A DNA stretch of 41,216 nucleotides, from positions 1 to 41,216 of IMG/VR virus record IMGVR_UViG_3300036782_000053, one strand, 5' to 3'. Made by a program: the position numbers and the translations under genes. This DNA comes from a virus. This document shows, piece after piece, positions 147-41,216 of the stretch (the first letter of the stretch is position 1; each line of letters starts with the position of its first letter). Under the pieces are notes generated by a model. The model did no database searches. It worked only from the letters and a program-made list of their open reading frames with translations, and was not told the origin of the DNA.

Positions 147-915
147 TCAGCTCCTTAAATAAATTCTTATAATAAAATGCAAATTCATTATCTTTTTTAG
201 TAAGTGTAAGTGGTAATTGGTTATAAGCAATCGAATTAGCAAATTGAATAGTTCTAGGGATATTAGCTTTAAAGAAGTGAATGCCTTCTTTCTCACAAAA
301 ACGACTTGCTTGTTTCATCGCTTCTGTATGAAGCTTAGTATTCTTTTGAACTAATGTAGCTACAACTCCAGTAATCTCTAAATTAGGATTATGTTTATTT
401 TTAAATTGACCAATTACATCGATTATTTTTATTAGTGATCGTACGGAATATTGTTCCGGTTGGAAAGGAATAATAATTTTATCCGTACAGCAAATTACAT
501 TACTTTGTATTAACCCTGAAGATGGTGGGCTATCAAATAAGATTACATCGTAATCGTCTTCCACAGACATTAACGCCACCTTTAAAAGTAAAAATGGATT
601 TATGTATTTATCTAAGTTAGGCAATATATCGAAATCTAAAAAGCTCATCATTTCATTAGACGGTAATACATCGATGTTCTCATGAACATTAACTATCGCT
701 TCACTTGCCGGTGCAAAATGAACTAAAACATCGTGCAATGTAGTACGATACTTGTCCGGATTCTTCCCGAAAGACAACAGTGAATTCCCTTGTTGGTCAG
801 CATCCACAATTAGAACACGTTTACCTTGTTTCGCATAAAGTCCAGCTAAATTTACAGTCATTGAAGACTTTAACACGCCGCCTTTATTCTGTACGAAAGC
901 TAATTTATAAGCCAT
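118..915 (-). CDS. parA: ParA/Soj-family partition ATPase (small type-Ib form, no N-terminal HTH)
   Basis: 265-aa ORF. Deviant Walker A NKGGVLKSS near the N terminus, plus VDADQQGN and LFDSPPS motifs. GGAGG 7 nt upstream of the ATG at 915. Confidence 0.9.
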   Translation of the reverse strand: MAYKLAFVQNKGGVLKSSMTVNLAGLYAKQGKRVLIVDADQQGNSLLSFGKNPDKYRTTLHDVLVHFAPASEAIVNVHENIDVLPSNEMMSFLDFDILPNLDKYINPFLLLKVALMSVEDDYDVILFDSPPSSGLIQSNVICCTDKIIIPFQPEQYSVRSLIKIIDVIGQFKNKHNPNLEITGVVATLVQKNTKLHTEAMKQASRFCEKEGIHFFKANIPRTIQFANSIAYNQLPLTLTKKDNEFAFYYKNLFKELNDFEGARIS

Positions 916-934
916 TCTGATACCTCCATTAAAT

Positions 935-1004
935 TTACATTAACAACAACGTTAACGTTTATATTAATAATTACATTAACGTTAATGATTATGTTTATAT
1001 TAAT
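935..1004. promoter_or_regulatory. par promoter region with two tandem ~35-bp modules carrying perfect palindromes (AACGTTAACGTT, ATTAACGTTAAT); candidate parS/operator
   Basis: TTACATTAACAACAACGTTAACGTTTATATTAATAA (935-970) followed by TTACATTAACGTTAATGATTATGTTTATATTAAT (971-1004), immediately upstream of parA. The second module recurs 30/34 at 40754-40787. Confidence 0.55.
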
Positions 1005-1097
1005 CTACTTTATCATACTTATTCTTTCATGCAATTGTTTTCCCTTTAAATCTTTTAAAAATACTTTCATTCGGGTATGTGAAATTTTAAGTTTAAA

Positions 1098-1122
1098 CAA
1101 AATAAAAAAGAGCCGAAGCTCT
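1098..1122 (-). terminator. Rho-independent terminator after the 46-aa ORF
   Basis: On the minus strand, AGAGC-TTCG-GCTCT followed by TTTTTTATTTT. The stem starts at the stop codon. Confidence 0.8.
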
Positions 1123-1262
1123 TATTTCGTTAAAGTATTAATTTGTTCTAAAAGTGCAATTGCCTGTGGATCACCGTTCTCCGCTTTTTCTAAGATGATA
1201 TGTAACTTGTCCTCCACAGTAATTTCATTCTCCATTTGTAATGCAGCCCCTTGATTCATCAT
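1122..1262 (-). CDS. 46-aa acidic small ORF in the AimX position, downstream of the receptor-peptide pair
   Basis: GGGAGG 9 nt upstream of ATGATG at 1262. Translation MMNQGAALQMENEITVEDKLHIILEKAENGDPQAIALLEQINTLTK. Followed directly by a strong terminator. Below the size cutoff of the ORF track. Confidence 0.5.
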   Translation of the reverse strand: MMNQGAALQMENEITVEDKLHIILEKAENGDPQAIALLEQINTLTK

Positions 1263-1300
1263 AGTAATTTTCCTCCCTAGTTTTTATGTAAGATATATAA

Positions 1301-1339
1301 GTGACACAGTTTTACGATTTGGTGTTTTATTTGTGTCAC
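1301..1339. promoter_or_regulatory. Inverted repeat GTGACACA-N23-TGTGTCAC; candidate receptor operator in front of the 46-aa ORF
   Basis: Perfect 8-bp arms at 1301-1308 and 1332-1339, lying between the peptide gene and a TATATA -10-like element upstream of the 46-aa ORF. Confidence 0.5.
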
Positions 1340-1354
1340 CCCTTAAACGCACTG

Positions 1355-1380
1355 AAAGTCGCTACCGAAGTAACGACTTT
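1355..1380. terminator. Stable 11-bp hairpin with tetraloop downstream of the peptide gene (terminator or attenuator, possibly bidirectional)
   Basis: AAAGTCGCTAC-CGAA-GTAACGACTTT with one G-T pair. The plus-strand side is followed by CTTTTG. The minus-strand side lacks a clean U tract. Confidence 0.4.
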
Positions 1381-1411
1381 CTTTTGCTGATATTTGTATT
1401 AAATTAATTTA

Positions 1412-1540
1412 TTAACTGCCGCCCGGATCAACCATCATATACTTAACCGGGCTTGTCTGATCTACTTTATCAACATTTCCAAATACTCCGAATCCAAATG
1501 CCCCTACGCACATCATTAGTGCAACTAGTTTCTTTTTCAT
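1412..1540 (-). CDS. 42-aa secreted signalling pre-peptide (AimP/Phr-like)
   Basis: Its ATG overlaps the receptor stop codon (ATGA at 1537-1540). Translation MKKKLVALMMCVGAFGFGVFGNVDKVDQTSPVKYMMVDPGGS has a KKK n-region, a hydrophobic core and a polar C-terminal pro-region. Not in the ORF track. Confidence 0.7.
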   Translation of the reverse strand: MKKKLVALMMCVGAFGFGVFGNVDKVDQTSPVKYMMVDPGGS

Positions 1541-2667
1541 TGTAGTAATTCCCCTTTGCTCATTAGTATGTTCTTACATAACTGGCCATAGAAACTTAAT
1601 CCTGATAATTCAAATTCTAGTAAGGCTTGTTTAATGCCTTCTAAATTCCCAATACATTTACTATAAGTAAATCGTTGGAAAGGACTAAAACCTTCTATCT
1701 CCATTTCTTTAAAAAGTGACAATCCCAGTTTCCGATCCCCAAAATTATATTCATAATTAGCTTTTTCGTTCTTGTGGATTGCCGACAAATTAATCTCTTT
1801 AATATTAATCTCATAATTTAGCCTTACATGTGCAAGTGTTGACTGAAAAGCTACATATTTTTGAGATTTTAAAGGAACATTAACTTCTCCCAATTTTTCA
1901 ATTGCCTTTGATATGTATTCAATTGATTTAGATGGAGATTCAAATTGATAGCTTTCTCCCAAACAACAAAAGGCAGTTGCTTGAATAATTGGAATATCTA
2001 TGCAAGAGTTGATTATTTTATAGCATGTATCTCTACATTCATCAAGTTGCACTCTCCATAAATACATGTACGCTTTTCGTTCATCAGCTAACATGCGTAA
2101 GTAATCCTTAATAATACCTTCTCGTAGTTTTTCTAAATTTTGTTCCATTGCATCCACATATTGAATGATTGCATTGTTATTTGGCATATCCGCAAGTGAT
2201 AACATTAATAGAATGTTTACCATCACCTGACAATGTGGATTGGAGGAAAAGCGCTTGCTACTTAATTCATTGTAAAGTTCTTTACCTCTTAATTCGTTCT
2301 TATTTCTTTTGTTAAAAAGTTTATATATGCTGAAGAATATTCCTAAATTAGTTTTCTGTTCATTTTTAGTTATTAAGTGATTCATAAGATCGTACTCACC
2401 TTTAACTTGGCAATATATTAAACCAACTTCAATATTCGATATACTTTCACATTTACTAAAGTATTCACTAGTAATTTCCCTTTTCTCGCTTTGCTTTTCA
2501 AATAAAAGATTAATAGCATCAAAGAACAATTTTACATCCATTTCATATTCACATGTAATCCCTCTTCTGAGCTTTTCACGACTCACTTTAAGTTTTTCAG
2601 CAAAACCTCTTCTTGAATATCCTAGGGATTCCATTCTACTTAATAAATGATTCATAACTCGTTGCAT
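1537..2667 (-). CDS. RRNPP-family (AimR-like) HTH plus helical-repeat peptide receptor/transcription regulator
   Basis: 376 aa. N-terminal HTH-like segment LGYSRRGFAEKLKVSREKLRRGI, then about 300 aa of helical repeat-like sequence. GGAAGGGG RBS. Size and architecture match AimR, and it is coupled to a small secreted-peptide gene. Confidence 0.7.
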   Translation of the reverse strand: MQRVMNHLLSRMESLGYSRRGFAEKLKVSREKLRRGITCEYEMDVKLFFDAINLLFEKQSEKREITSEYFSKCESISNIEVGLIYCQVKGEYDLMNHLITKNEQKTNLGIFFSIYKLFNKRNKNELRGKELYNELSSKRFSSNPHCQVMVNILLMLSLADMPNNNAIIQYVDAMEQNLEKLREGIIKDYLRMLADERKAYMYLWRVQLDECRDTCYKIINSCIDIPIIQATAFCCLGESYQFESPSKSIEYISKAIEKLGEVNVPLKSQKYVAFQSTLAHVRLNYEINIKEINLSAIHKNEKANYEYNFGDRKLGLSLFKEMEIEGFSPFQRFTYSKCIGNLEGIKQALLEFELSGLSFYGQLCKNILMSKGELLQ

Positions 2668-2791
2668 GATTTTCCCCTTCCAGAAAAAATAAACCGTGTC
2701 CTAACGAATTTTCTCAAGTCGGAAACAAAATACGAGGAAAGAATATTGCGTTTTTGTGTTATACTTAGATGTGACTCGTATGTAGCAAAGT

Positions 2792-2873
2792 GTTTCCTAA
2801 GTACCAGTTAGGGAACGGTTCAAGAGATAGTTTGACAGCCGCCTCTTGAACGCGCTCATATGGGTCTTTTTTT
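2792..2873 (+). other. Two adjacent hairpins plus a T7 run in the noncoding region upstream of the receptor gene; possible small RNA or leader structure
   Basis: GTTTCCTAA-N7-TTAGGGAAC (2792-2816), GTTCAAGAG-N16-CTCTTGAAC (2818-2851), TTTTTTT at 2867-2873. No ORF on either strand. Confidence 0.25.
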
Positions 2874-2982
2874 CGTTCGTTATAGTTATTTTTAATACTA
2901 TCACGAATTTTCTAATTTTTGATGACTAGGTCACCTGATAATTGTTGAGAAAGTTTTTTTATTGTTATAAATCAAGATTTCG

Positions 2983-2996
2983 TTTTACATGTAAAA
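2983..2996. promoter_or_regulatory. 14-bp perfect palindrome TTTTACATGTAAAA; possible operator
   Basis: Read directly. Lies in the AT-rich divergent region between the receptor gene and the 3164 XRE gene. Confidence 0.3.
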
Positions 2997-3046
2997 TTTC
3001 ATATTAACTAATGATTTATTAGCGCATGAATATTTTACCATAAAAC

Positions 3047-3060
3047 AGAACCTTTGTTCT
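3047..3060. promoter_or_regulatory. Cheo-box-like LexA site aGAAC-CTTT-GTTCt inside a TTACCA-N18-TATATT promoter-like element
   Basis: GAAC at 3048-3051 and GTTC at 3056-3059 (GAAC-N4-GTTC). TATATT at 3059-3064 overlaps the box and TTACCA lies at 3035-3040. About 100 bp upstream of the XRE gene. Confidence 0.45.
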
Positions 3061-3163
3061 ATATTTATTTTTAATTTAGTTGTTTGGTGACTAAAAATCT
3101 ATAAACGTTAATAAAACGACTATTTGTAGTGGTGTGTGGAGGTACTGTTTATACTTATTTATT

Positions 3164-3508
3164 ATGATAATTTTTGGTAAAACTCTAAGACAATTGAGAA
3201 AATCGCGTGATCTAACACAAATTGAATTGGCTGAGATTTTAAATCTTAGTCAGAGCCAAATCAAAAATTGGGAAACAGGACGATTTCAGCCGGATATTGA
3301 AACTCTTTCTAATATGGCTTCCTTTTTCAACGTCTCATTAGACGTCCTTGTTGGCTTTTCAAACAATTTCGAAGATGAACCAATACAACAAGTCATTTCT
3401 GAAGCTAGGTCAACGTATGGGGCGTTAAACGAAGCTCAGAAAGAACGTTTTTGTAATCAGTTGTTATTGTTCATGAAAATGATAAAAGACAATCAAGGAA
3501 CGTTCTAA
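3164..3508 (+). CDS. XRE-family HTH transcriptional regulator (114 aa)
   Basis: MIIFGKTLRQLRKSRDLTQIELAEILNLSQSQIKNWETG is a classic XRE HTH N terminus. The start at ATG 3164 is preferred over the track start at 3134. No well-spaced RBS, so the start is uncertain. Confidence 0.8.
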   Translation: MIIFGKTLRQLRKSRDLTQIELAEILNLSQSQIKNWETGRFQPDIETLSNMASFFNVSLDVLVGFSNNFEDEPIQQVISEARSTYGALNEAQKERFCNQLLLFMKMIKDNQGTF

Positions 3509-3591
3509 ATTACATTCATTGTAAAAGAAATGTTTTCCAATTTATAGCGGTAAAATATTACATTATTTTACTCAATGTGGAAGGGGGCTGT

Positions 3592-4479
3592 TTAGCTCTC
3601 TTCTTTTCTGTTTTTACCTAGTAACTCAGCTAAACGTTTTTGGTTTTCTTCTATATCTTCAGTAGCTTGTCCATTGTCTTCCACAGTTACTACTTCATTA
3701 TCTTCTTTTAACCACTCAGGGGCCATTTCAGTACGTACATATTTAGAACCTGATACTTTTGCTTTACCTTGTCTTACTTTCTGTTTCTGGCCAAGCTTAG
3801 ACATCTTTTCTTCCACAACCTTTATGACATAGTTTTCAGCAGCAACTAGATCGGTAGTTCCGATTGCTTTGCATTTACTAGTAACATCATGAATTGCTTT
3901 AATAGTTTTTTGGTTTGTAATCTCTCGCTCTTTGATCTTTGAATTCATTAAATCAAGAATCATAGATTCAGTGACAGGGTTAGTTATAATTTCTTCTTCT
4001 TCTTTTTCTTTAATTAAGTCTTTTTTTATAATATCTTTCTTATCTCTTGGTTTTGAGGTCTTCATTTTGAGGTCTTGAAAATCAAGTCCCCAAATTTGAC
4101 CGTGTTCTTTTTCGGCATAAGCAAGAATCTCTTCACGTTCTTCAGCTGTGAATGGCTTGATACGATAGTAATATTCGTAGTCCCATTTCTTACCCACACG
4201 AAACTTATATTCAATGATGTAATTAGCATCCATTAATTCTTTCCATGCATTTTTTACAGATACTTCTTTATTCTTTCCATAACGTTTGTACAGTTCTGTT
4301 TTATGTAATTCCCATTCTTCAGTGTTGTAAGACCAAAGATTAACGATTAATCCTAATGCTTGTAATGAAAGACAACTTTCTGGATCATCATTATTTTTTC
4401 GCGTTTCAACTGCAACTGCTGTTTTGTTTGGTACTTCCACATATTCTTTTTCTAGTTTCCATTTTTTCATTTTAGCCAT
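3592..4479 (-). CDS. Putative plasmid/prophage replication initiator (winged-helix Rep or DnaD-like), 295 aa
   Basis: GGAGG RBS before ATG 4479 (MAKMKKWKLEKEY). The N-terminal half resembles RepA_N-type initiators of Firmicute plasmids (LSLQALGLIVNLWSY...VKNAWKELMDANYI). Charged low-complexity linker. Sits between the repressor and partition genes. Confidence 0.5.
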   Translation of the reverse strand: MAKMKKWKLEKEYVEVPNKTAVAVETRKNNDDPESCLSLQALGLIVNLWSYNTEEWELHKTELYKRYGKNKEVSVKNAWKELMDANYIIEYKFRVGKKWDYEYYYRIKPFTAEEREEILAYAEKEHGQIWGLDFQDLKMKTSKPRDKKDIIKKDLIKEKEEEEIITNPVTESMILDLMNSKIKEREITNQKTIKAIHDVTSKCKAIGTTDLVAAENYVIKVVEEKMSKLGQKQKVRQGKAKVSGSKYVRTEMAPEWLKEDNEVVTVEDNGQATEDIEENQKRLAELLGKNRKEES

Positions 4480-4806: not shown

Positions 4807-5127
4807 CTAGAAGTTATCAATTAAATTCATGATAGCTTGTCTCTTTTCTGGAGGTAATTTATTTATCTTCTCCATAAGATCGGCAGCTTCTTTTGAGATT
4901 TTCTCTGATTTGTCATGATTTAATGTTTTATGCTCTGATAATCCCAGCATGTAGTCAACAGATACATTGAAAAGTTTAGCCATTTTGACTTTATTTTCAC
5001 TTGAAGGGGACTGTTTTCCTGACTCGAATCTTGAGATATTAGATTTTTCAATTTCTAAGACATCTGCTAGTTGTTGTTGCGTCATTCCCTTCTCCAGGCG
5101 CAATGCTTTTAAGCGTTGTCCGAACAT
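4807..5127 (-). CDS. cI-like XRE-family repressor (106 aa)
   Basis: MFGQRLKALRLEKGMTQQQLADVLEIEKSNISRFESG HTH. Divergent from a cro-like gene. AGAGGAA RBS. Confidence 0.8.
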   Translation of the reverse strand: MFGQRLKALRLEKGMTQQQLADVLEIEKSNISRFESGKQSPSSENKVKMAKLFNVSVDYMLGLSEHKTLNHDKSEKISKEAADLMEKINKLPPEKRQAIMNLIDNF

Positions 5128-5255
5128 TTTTGTGTTCCTCTTTTCATTAAAAGTATTAAGATGTGTTTTTCACAACTTATTTATATCTACATTCTATATT
5201 AAAAGTTGAGTGGAAATCAACAAAATAATTATTTGTATAAAAAATCAAAATAATA

Positions 5256-5272
5256 GTTGCGTAATTCGCAAC
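5256..5272. promoter_or_regulatory. Operator palindrome GTTGCG-TAATT-CGCAAC in the cI/cro divergent region
   Basis: Perfect 6-bp arms, overlapping TTGCGT ... TATAAA promoter-like elements reading toward cro. Confidence 0.6.
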
Positions 5273-5313
5273 TTTGTTATAAACTCGATTTATGAAAGAG
5301 GTGTTCATCGTTT

Positions 5314-5514
5314 ATGATTATCAATAACGAATTTCTTCGTGAAATTAGGAAGGAAAAGGGATTAACACAAACTCAAGTGGCTAAGTTACTTAACCTTGAT
5401 AAGACATCTATTTCAAAGTACGAATCAGGCATTCATTGTCCTAGCTTAAGAGTTCTTGTGTTATATTCAGAGACTTTCGATATAAATATTGAAAAGTTTC
5501 TCAGGCAAAGTTAA
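5314..5514 (+). CDS. Cro-like XRE-family HTH protein (66 aa)
   Basis: LREIRKEKGLTQTQVAKLLNLDKTSISKYESG. AAGAGGTG RBS. Divergent from the cI-like gene. Confidence 0.8.
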   Translation: MIINNEFLREIRKEKGLTQTQVAKLLNLDKTSISKYESGIHCPSLRVLVLYSETFDINIEKFLRQS

Positions 5515-40851: not shown

Positions 40852-41216
40852 TTATAATAAACCTCGTTCTTCAAAGAAATCACGGAATATTTTATTTGCA
40901 ATTTTTGATTGATCTCCGCGTTTTGGTTTTTTACCTAATAGCTTTTGAAAAGCATCACGAACATCTTTATCTAAATGAAATCCTACAACTTTTTTATCAT
41001 TGTTGTCTTTTAATAATTCGAGGATATCTTCATTTGCTTTCTTTTTAACTTCTGGCTCTTTTGGATTATTGTTACCATTTTCTTCTTCATTAACGTTTTC
41101 ATTAATGTTTTCATCTTCATCAACGTTAACATTACCATTAACATTGTTGTTAACGTTATTACCCTGTTCATCTTCACCACTTCTTGTAGCACTTTCTCCA
41201 AATAAATCAGCTAATT
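40852..41216 (-). CDS. ParG-like ribbon-helix-helix partition protein, 3' part (gene truncated by the window edge; first 19 nt are at 146..128)
   Basis: Translated codon by codon with no stop from 41216 down to TAA (40852-40854). The C-terminal KKVVGFHLDKDVRDAFQKLLGKKPKRGDQSKIANKIFRDFFEERG fits a beta-strand/helix/helix RHH layout. The N-terminal half is an N/V/D/E low-complexity tail. Confidence 0.65.
   Translation of the reverse strand, partial: LADLFGESATRSGEDEQGNNVNNNVNGNVNVDEDENINENVNEEENGNNNPKEPEVKKKANEDILELLKDNNDKKVVGFHLDKDVRDAFQKLLGKKPKRGDQSKIANKIFRDFFEERGLL
41090..41216. repeat. Second copy of the 127-bp terminal overlap (identical to 1-127)
   Basis: See the first feature. Confidence 0.95.

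Follow-up and report, generated by a model that had tools for sequence, protein, structure and literature searches.

Our analysis concerned the IMG/VR virus record IMGVR_UViG_3300036782_000053, which was examined over its whole length of 41,216 nucleotides (referred to as the window). Positions 1098-1381 of this window are the output module of an arbitrium cassette located on a 41-kb phage-plasmid of the Bacillus cereus group. In the direction of transcription the cassette comprises the following features, where class A denotes the receptor class of the window itself and aa stands for amino acids:

1537-2667, minus strand: aimR, peptide receptor and DNA-binding regulator of 376 aa (Pfam PF22871 (AimR), E = 2e-22, residues 64-366)
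1412-1540, minus strand: aimP, pro-peptide gene of 42 aa ending in ...MMVDPGGS, with an ATGA start/stop overlap with aimR
1354-1381, minus strand: stem-loop after aimP, putative AimR-controlled terminator (arms 1354-1365 and 1370-1381, 12 bp including one G.U pair, UUCG loop)
1340-1353, minus strand: linker AGTGCGTTTAAGGG of 14 nt from terminator to operator, seen in the alignment of class-A sequences
1301-1339, no strand assigned: putative AimR operator GTGACACA-N23-TGTGTCAC with perfect arms at 1301-1308 and 1332-1339 (geometry, conservation, covariation)
1272-1277, minus strand: GGGAGG, Shine-Dalgarno sequence of aimX, 9 nt before the ATG and kept in relatives
1122-1262, minus strand: gene in the aimX position encoding an acidic helical protein of 46 aa, putative antirepressor (conservation, polymorphism ratio, structure prediction)
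1098-1123, minus strand: intrinsic terminator ending the aimX transcript before parS and parA (stem 1108-1123 followed by a T run; -10.4 kcal/mol)

The assignment to the arbitrium systems is based on the match of the 376-aa protein to PF22871 and on eight PLSDB 'plasmids' of approximately 41 kb from B. cereus-group strains that show the same layout. Relatives of aimR carry the annotation 'AimR family lysis-lysogeny pheromone receptor'; AimR itself is too diverged to give a sequence match to any PDB chain at E <= 0.01. AimP, with its hydrophobic N-terminus and a C-terminus ending in DPGGS, is a predicted secreted pro-peptide. Its C-terminus is class-specific, changing with the class of AimR from one relative to the next. 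The window represents a whole temperate phage of approximately 41 kb that is kept as a plasmid. After the 46-aa open reading frame (ORF) come ParA and centromere-like repeats, and a replication-type gene, three helix-turn-helix (HTH) genes and a full structural module are encoded as well. A close sequenced phage isolate was not found, the nearest structural module being approximately 65% identical, and HD29phi was the only phage with the aimR region in common (74%). For comparison we gathered approximately 55 related loci from PLSDB and IMG/VR; class A comprises 19 loci with 11 distinct sequences.

The ORF in the aimX position is a real gene under purifying selection. It is retained in 17 loci, in some of them with a 9-nt in-frame insertion, and its ratio of nonsynonymous to synonymous polymorphism (pN/pS) is 0.26-0.34. 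An earlier reading of this DNA made from the sequence alone (hereafter the sequence-only reading) had described a GGGAGG followed by a 46-codon ORF at 1122-1262 and a strong terminator at 1098-1122. These features were confirmed: the GGGAGG lies at 1272-1277, the product is 46 aa long exactly as quoted, and the terminator consists of the stem 1108-1123 and a T run on the minus strand, conserved directly after the ORF in relatives. AlphaFold2, run with the family alignment, returned a model with a confidence (pLDDT) of 84, in which two helices (residues 16-28 and 32-45) reached a pLDDT of approximately 98 and were separated by an NGD turn. That this ORF acts as a protein and is the output gene in the aimX position is therefore supported. 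The plus-strand ORF 985-1254, which the sequence-only reading had regarded as spurious, is indeed so, since it is cut down to 19-65 aa in relatives and is not preceded by a Shine-Dalgarno sequence.

The 46-aa family is very small and unannotated. At 90% identity its members fall into 52 clusters, every one of B. cereus-group origin, and 13 representatives were recovered at E <= 1e-3 among 1.84 billion proteins. Pfam gave no match, PHROGs one non-significant match (phrog_796, E = 0.059), a PDB sequence search chance-level matches only (E >= 0.09), and Foldseek against the PDB no match. No match at E <= 1 was obtained by tblastn against 50,697 phage records including phi3T, a scan of genome contigs with the AimX alignment gave no relative, and Rfam in E-value mode over 850-3200 gave only a sub-threshold chance match. 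The earlier statement that the effector is not visibly similar to AimX was thus borne out. An identity as phi3T-type AimX was ruled out, as there was no phi3T_91 match in the tblastn search of the 50,697 records, and homology to the AimX of HD29phi (phrog_12730) was dropped at an hhalign E of 0.063. Across the AimR loci from IMG/VR (L103-L142) we observed at least six unrelated small-ORF families in the aimX position. Several of these share N-termini (MMN[QK]G..., MML.TVG...), and each family pairs with its own convergent HTH repressor.

A recent study by Kabel et al. (bioRxiv 10.1101/2025.11.23.689978) classified approximately 75% of arbitrium systems as 'extended'. The aimX product of such systems is a helical antirepressor, 29-80 aa long, that binds the C-terminal oligomerisation domain of AimC, a short XRE repressor that is convergent with the adjacent aimX and has a divergent cro-like partner, AimL. 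The phages phi106, phiW23, Wbeta, BMBtp14 and Waukesha92-like ones served to test the model (bioRxiv 10.1101/2025.11.23.689978). The window encodes a candidate pair of such genes:

4807-5127, minus strand: short XRE-type repressor of 106 aa (HTH-106), putative AimC equivalent (matches Pfam HTH families only, no cleavage domain)
5314-5514, plus strand: cro-like HTH gene of 66 aa, putative AimL equivalent, divergent from the repressor and heading a long plus-strand operon

Across its whole length HTH-106 shares 44% identity with HD29phi AimC, which is encoded convergently, and it shares 41% (E = 1e-30) with the AimC of the canonical loci L111, L125 and L133. The 42-aa AimX of the same three loci aligns with the 46-aa family (hhalign E = 1.5e-4). 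Among carriers of the 46-aa family the repressor differs widely in its HTH half and is conserved in the 40 residues at its C-terminus (SKEAAxLMEKINKLPPEKRxxIxNLIDNF). Every element with the AimX family whose sequence reaches far enough encodes this C-terminal domain, i.e. eight of eight PLSDB phage-plasmids, the IMG/VR loci and a further locus, L144, which keeps AimX and AimC although the HTH gene beside aimR is absent from it. Two plasmids with the AimC domain and no tblastn match turned out to hold clear distant AimX homologues next to an inverted arbitrium cassette; the homologue on p46701 (locus L021) was found with an hhalign probability of 95%. A scan of viral contigs with the AimC alignment returned mostly generic XRE proteins, and the C-terminal domain was present in only 5 of 80 loci. 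A single-sequence AlphaFold2 model of HTH-106, poor overall, showed a helix-turn-helix near the C-terminus (residues 71-104, pLDDT approximately 82), preceded by a linker without order, and the HTH of HTH-106 matches that of SinR at E = 2e-4.

Because the 46-aa ORF co-occurs with the C-terminal domain of AimC, and because remote relatives of both genes adjoin each other in canonical loci, we read the 46-aa protein as most likely an AimX-type antirepressor, and on these comparisons the balance tips modestly towards HTH-106 as the repressor that it would counteract. The suggestion in the sequence-only reading that the mechanism of the effector might be new is not supported, given that AimX antirepressors are known (bioRxiv 10.1101/2025.11.23.689978) and that the window encodes an AimC/AimL-like pair.

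Relatives of the 46-aa gene also occur outside of arbitrium cassettes. The 239-kb plasmid pBFI_2 (NZ_CP009636.1, locus L004) carries at approximately 3900-4230 an orphan output unit without aimR or aimP, which consists of a hairpin of the class-B type, boxes with slight degeneracy, a Shine-Dalgarno sequence, a homologue of the 46-aa aimX and a terminator, and adjoins genes for a Y-family polymerase and YolD. Distant relatives with the pattern ...EDKLxxILEKAENGDxxAIKVLxEINRILKQV were found at L017 5953-6114, L019 3248-3394 and L143 5001-5132, in small islands. Besides capsid, portal and terminase, these islands encode an integrase, a VapE-type primase and an HTH repressor/cro pair and no arbitrium genes, and judging from this gene content they look like capsid-forming satellites. 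One might speculate that the 46-aa family is a trans-acting 'key' shared between mobile elements, going beyond a private antirepressor of AimC, but we regard this as a long shot. If true, a copy of AimX might serve satellites or other plasmids to lift repression in resident arbitrium phage-plasmids that have the conserved C-terminal domain of AimC in common. Alternatively, the orphan units might be driven in trans by a co-resident AimR, or the family may target something conserved other than AimC.

The stem-loop after aimP has a folding energy of -19.8 kcal/mol (z = -5.3). A hairpin at 1355-1380 without a clean U tract had already been noted in the sequence-only reading and was recovered here, with arms spanning 1354-1381 and 12 bp including the G.U pair. 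The stem-loop is preceded by an A tract, and the tail after its 3' arm is CAGUGCGUUU. On the 3' side the structure continues with CUUUC AGUGCGUUU (CUUUC...GUUU), an imperfect U tract that narrowly misses the T-run rule of the scanner. Two variable stem positions among the 19 class-A loci still pair via G.U, as expected of an RNA structure on the minus strand. A hairpin was present at the equivalent place in 39 of 39 further AimR loci analysed, all of which are organised alike: a hairpin that is rich in GC and ends in CTTTC is succeeded by a U-rich tail, the boxes, a Shine-Dalgarno sequence and a small ORF. Of the linker between hairpin and operator, the first 12 nt are invariant in the 11 distinct class-A sequences, and positions 13 and 14 are each G or A. 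In SPbeta, the annotated stem-loop likewise ends 14 nt before the box ATCACT, and the linker there, GTAGTTTTAAGGCC, has the motif TTTAAGG in common with that of the window.

In phi3T and SPbeta, AimR has been shown to be an anti-terminator of a transcript started upstream, without a promoter downstream of its site; aimP and aimX lie on one transcript, with a terminator between aimP and the AimR site, and read-through requires DNA-bound AimR and depends critically on the distance from terminator to site (PMC10769878). This short fixed distance is matched in the window. The hairpin 1354-1381 is more likely the regulated element than a side feature, with AimR acting as an anti-terminator here too. 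We favour anti-termination over activation at a promoter because of the SPbeta-like distance from hairpin to box and the lack of conservation of the only promoter-like element, TATATA (see below); the sequence-only reading, in which AimR activated aimX at a promoter, was revised in this respect following PMC10769878. As a side observation, in class-B loci (e.g. L003 at approximately 3000-3060) the terminator 3' arm CTTTCC can pair with GGAAAG just before the left box, forming a small alternative hairpin that overlaps the terminator stem.

Downstream of the linker lies the perfect 8-bp inverted repeat with its 23-bp spacer. Its presence at 1301-1308 and 1332-1339, as previously noted, was confirmed; GTGACACA-N23-TGTGTCAC occurs as a single copy in the window, in which a second full operator was sought and not found. 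The core of the repeat can be written as TGACAC-N25-GTGTCA (1333-1338 and 1302-1307) with an AT-rich spacer and a G/C-containing centre. The footprinted operators of SPbeta (ATCACT-N25-AGTGAT) and phi3T (ATGTTC-N25-GAACAT) also have spacers rich in A and T, and spacer lengths of 23-28 bp are tolerated by AimR (PMC6458997). The geometry of six, 25 and six positions is thus the same in all three elements, and the box sequences differ (TGACAC against ATCACT or ATGTTC). [quoted passage not shown]

Furthermore, the boxes change together with the predicted recognition helix of AimR between the classes of the approximately 55 related loci, as follows:

Recognition helix SRExxRRGxxCEY: boxes TGACAC / GTGTCA
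Recognition helix SRETFRRGINAES: boxes TGACCC / GGGTCA (identical substitution in both arms)
Recognition helix RxVIEEGLSGKT: boxes GGCTG-N25-CAGCC
Recognition helix RVVIxDAVSGxT: boxes TGTTGG / TCGACA
Recognition helix xVIxDGIVxxKTA: boxes degenerate, GGYKG / CAWCC

A natural chimera was found in locus L021 (NZ_CP015358.1, plasmid p46701, 4611-5831). The HTH region of its AimR is closest to class C (65% identity over the segment), with a recognition helix identical to that of class C, and over the last 137 residues the protein shares 97% identity with a receptor of class D. L021 carries class-C boxes, and its peptide ends in HEPGGY; the chimera thereby ties the boxes to the HTH part of AimR. 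HD29phi retains hairpin and boxes despite a different small gene downstream. Based on the geometry, the invariance in class A, the covariation of helix and boxes, the L021 chimera and the retention in HD29phi, the widely spaced palindrome is very probably the binding site of AimR, as the sequence-only reading had proposed; the covariation of half-sites with the receptor in related elements, which had been put forward there as a check, proved positive. In addition, we observed CACCTAATTTTTACCAA directly after the right box in classes C and D and a related CCACCTAAAATATACCAA in class B.

Together, these features suggest the following course of events, modelled on other arbitrium phages. A transcript covering aimR and aimP would enter the stem-loop 1354-1381 and mostly terminate there. 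Peptide-free AimR dimers would bind TGACAC and GTGTCA, 25 bp apart and starting 14-15 nt past the stem-loop, and the bound receptor would allow RNA polymerase to read through, as in SPbeta and phi3T. Read-through would transcribe the 46-aa gene, the transcript ending at the strong terminator 1098-1123. Once the AimP-derived peptide has accumulated, AimR could no longer span the boxes, so that termination would resume and synthesis of the 46-aa protein would stop. The 46-aa protein, a predicted helical hairpin, would most likely bind the conserved C-terminal oligomerisation domain of the repressor encoded at 4807-5127, which could then not oligomerise on operators beside the cro-like gene 5314-5514, and the lytic operon would open. 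This logic would be that of AimX/AimC/AimL and similar to that of SinI/SinR. As a whole, we consider an arbitrium output stage that combines anti-termination with AimX/AimC/AimL-type antirepression to be reasonably probable.

Several points weigh against this interpretation. All steps of the mechanism are transferred from work on other phages, and what the window itself contributes are sequence features and their conservation. The terminator scan made no call at the stem-loop 1354-1381, the U tract of which is poor. Perfect 8-bp repeats with spacers of 20-30 nt number 20 in the window compared with 14.5 in shuffles, and the probability of one such repeat in the 149-nt spacer is approximately 0.025, which is not unusual alone; the repeat owes its weight to its position and conservation and not to its rarity. 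It could moreover fold as RNA at -12.1 kcal/mol (z = -3.3). With regard to the target, AimX bears a weak resemblance to the C-terminus of AimC (blastp E = 0.008 across 20 residues, hhalign probability 8%), a strict covariation of AimX subtypes (46 versus 49 aa) with AimC C-terminal variants was looked for and not seen, and AimX relatives occur without a nearby AimC on pBFI_2 and in the small VapE/capsid islands.

The last three points are also those that favour an effector with another target, namely a host factor (compare the action of phi3T AimX on MazF), the HTH protein encoded at 3134-3508, or replication or partition. Three different aimX mechanisms are already known, relatives without a nearby AimC exist, subtypes do not strictly covary with AimC, and mimicry of the AimC C-terminus is not significant. 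Other observations speak against such a target. The 46-aa protein shows no similarity to phi3T AimX. The HTH gene 3134-3508 was rejected as a partner of AimX, since it is an allele of approximately 33% identity where AimX is approximately 90% identical, and since L144 retains AimX and AimC without having this gene. What lies downstream of aimX varies between relatives (ParA, ParM, others), and the one constant partner is the AimC C-terminal domain. We therefore hold a different target to be unlikely, though a serious contender, and retain the repressor HTH-106 as the preferred one.

A second alternative concerns the mode of control, i.e. that AimR at the repeat recruits RNA polymerase to a weak promoter (TATATA without a -35), in which case aimX would have its own start and the hairpin would merely be the terminator of aimP. 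AimR was an activator in the original arbitrium model, an AT-rich -10-like stretch abuts the right box, and in classes B and C a TAAAAT or TAATTT follows the right box after 2-4 nt. The TATATA of the sequence-only reading is indeed present; the promoter scan, however, called nothing between the boxes and the 46-aa ORF, and the hexamer varies among class-A relatives (TATATA, TATACA, TATAAA, TACATA, CTGATT), whereas boxes and linker are nearly invariant. Output in phi3T and SPbeta depends on the upstream promoter, the terminator and the distance from terminator to site (PMC10769878), and the same distance is found here. Classical activation thus appears improbable next to anti-termination by AimR.

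Still more doubtful, in our view, is the possibility that the inverted repeat acts mainly as an RNA hairpin (second terminator, anti-terminator partner or stabiliser) and not, or not only, as a DNA site. Besides its folding energy, such a role would be consistent with the T and A runs of classes B to D, by which the stem grows to 10-13 bp, and with arm mismatches in class C and L020 that are G.U-compatible on the sense strand. In class A, however, the stem is just 8-10 bp with a loop of approximately 20 nt, L117 and L120 have a C.A arm mismatch on the sense strand, and no consistent U tract was seen after the stem. The spacing of the boxes is that of the experimentally defined AimR operator, and in the L021 chimera the boxes follow the HTH part of AimR. 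A dual role of the repeat is conceivable.

That the output is a non-coding or antisense RNA and the ORF incidental, as earlier literature proposed for effectors of SPbeta and B. cereus-group systems, is very improbable here: ORF, Shine-Dalgarno sequence and reading frame are conserved with a pN/pS of approximately 0.3 and a 9-nt in-frame indel, AimX function is lost in start-codon mutants of related systems, nothing lies antisense to the transcript, and a strong terminator follows the ORF, with the next gene, parA, on the same strand. The repressor gene shares the strand of aimX and is located 3.5 kb upstream of it, and this terminator marks the end of the aimX transcript; an effect would therefore have to act through the protein, and an antisense-RNA route is excluded for this element. 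Of the earlier proposal that the 46-aa protein or its RNA is the effector, the protein half stands on the polymorphism ratio and the in-frame indel, and the terminator and the orientation of parA speak against the RNA half.

Upstream of aimR we identified one more candidate regulatory element:

3032-3060, minus strand: possible SOS-controlled promoter for aimR-aimP(-aimX), consisting of a Cheo/LexA-type box AGAACaaagGTTCT (3047-3060) and an extended -10, TGgTAAAAT (3032-3040)

The box lies approximately 380 nt upstream of aimR, towards which the extended -10 points, and is the only GAAC-N4-GTTC in the window. A LexA box before aimX, as in phi106, was looked for and there was none. The LexA-type box is conserved in 16 of 16 phage-plasmid relatives spanning three AimR classes and is absent from HD29phi and from L144. 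As the latter also lacks the neighbouring HTH gene, the assignment of the box to aimR is tentative, and the box may couple either the arbitrium operon or the divergent HTH gene to the SOS response. Its conservation suggests a possible route for DNA damage into the switch in this lineage. The HTH gene in question (3134-3508, plus strand), divergent from aimR, is only approximately 33% identical to the gene in the same position in all relatives, where flanking genes are 85-95% identical, and it looks like an allele replacement.

Some further observations were made on the element itself. Iterons of the types AACGTTAA and TTAACGTT are found at 930-1007 (upstream of parA), at 1-60 and at 41090-41150, and they look like centromere (parS) repeats. 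Those at both ends of the window fall inside an Asn/Val-rich ORF that comes after parA, which suggests that the window represents an entire circular phage-plasmid, linearised within this gene. A two-way terminator-like hairpin is located at 3579-3604, between the HTH gene and a 311-aa replication-type gene that belongs to PHROG 27492 with a weak 'replication protein' match.

Detailed studies of arbitrium output have so far been confined to SPbeta-like phages and, since very recently, five 'extended' systems. Compared to SPbeta and phi3T, the order of parts is the same (aimP, terminator, AimR site, aimX; PMC6458997, PMC10769878), but in the window aimR and aimP overlap, and the 46-aa effector is unrelated both to the phi3T AimX, a MazF binder, and to the SPbeta RNA. 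The element itself is a plasmid-prophage and not an integrated SPbeta-like phage. The antirepressor logic recalls SinI and SinR of Bacillus subtilis, where a small helical protein likewise acts on the helical oligomerisation domain of an XRE-type HTH repressor, as proposed here for AimX and HTH-106. SinI clearly resembles the SinR C-terminus, whereas the similarity of AimX and AimC in the window is marginal. Both are predicted helix-turn-helix hairpins.

What the extended module (bioRxiv 10.1101/2025.11.23.689978) and the window have in common is a small helical ORF that comes next to aimP in the same orientation, a short XRE repressor lacking a cleavage domain and a divergent cro-like gene heading the lytic operon. 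In contrast to it, the aimC/aimL-like pair 4807-5514 is neither adjacent to nor convergent with aimX. It is located 3.5 kb upstream with the aimC-like gene on the aimX strand, and the replication-type gene and another HTH gene intervene before the cassette. The terminator, parS-like repeats and parA come after aimX in place of an HTH gene, the LexA-type box is found upstream of aimR and not before aimX, and the AimX family itself is without a match in the 50,697 phage records. The same logic may thus operate with a repressor/cro pair distant from the signalling cassette, a dispersed layout that would count as 'other' in surveys of gene adjacency. The comparison also provides a first table linking AimR recognition helices of the B. 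cereus group to their boxes, including a natural domain swap, and this table could predict cross-talk among co-resident arbitrium elements in strains of B. cereus, B. thuringiensis and B. anthracis. Current understanding is not overturned by these observations: the output module is a rearranged version of a known design and not a new mechanism, and because adjacency and convergence of aimC fail and the AimX family is an uncharacterised one, we file it as a variant of the extended module.

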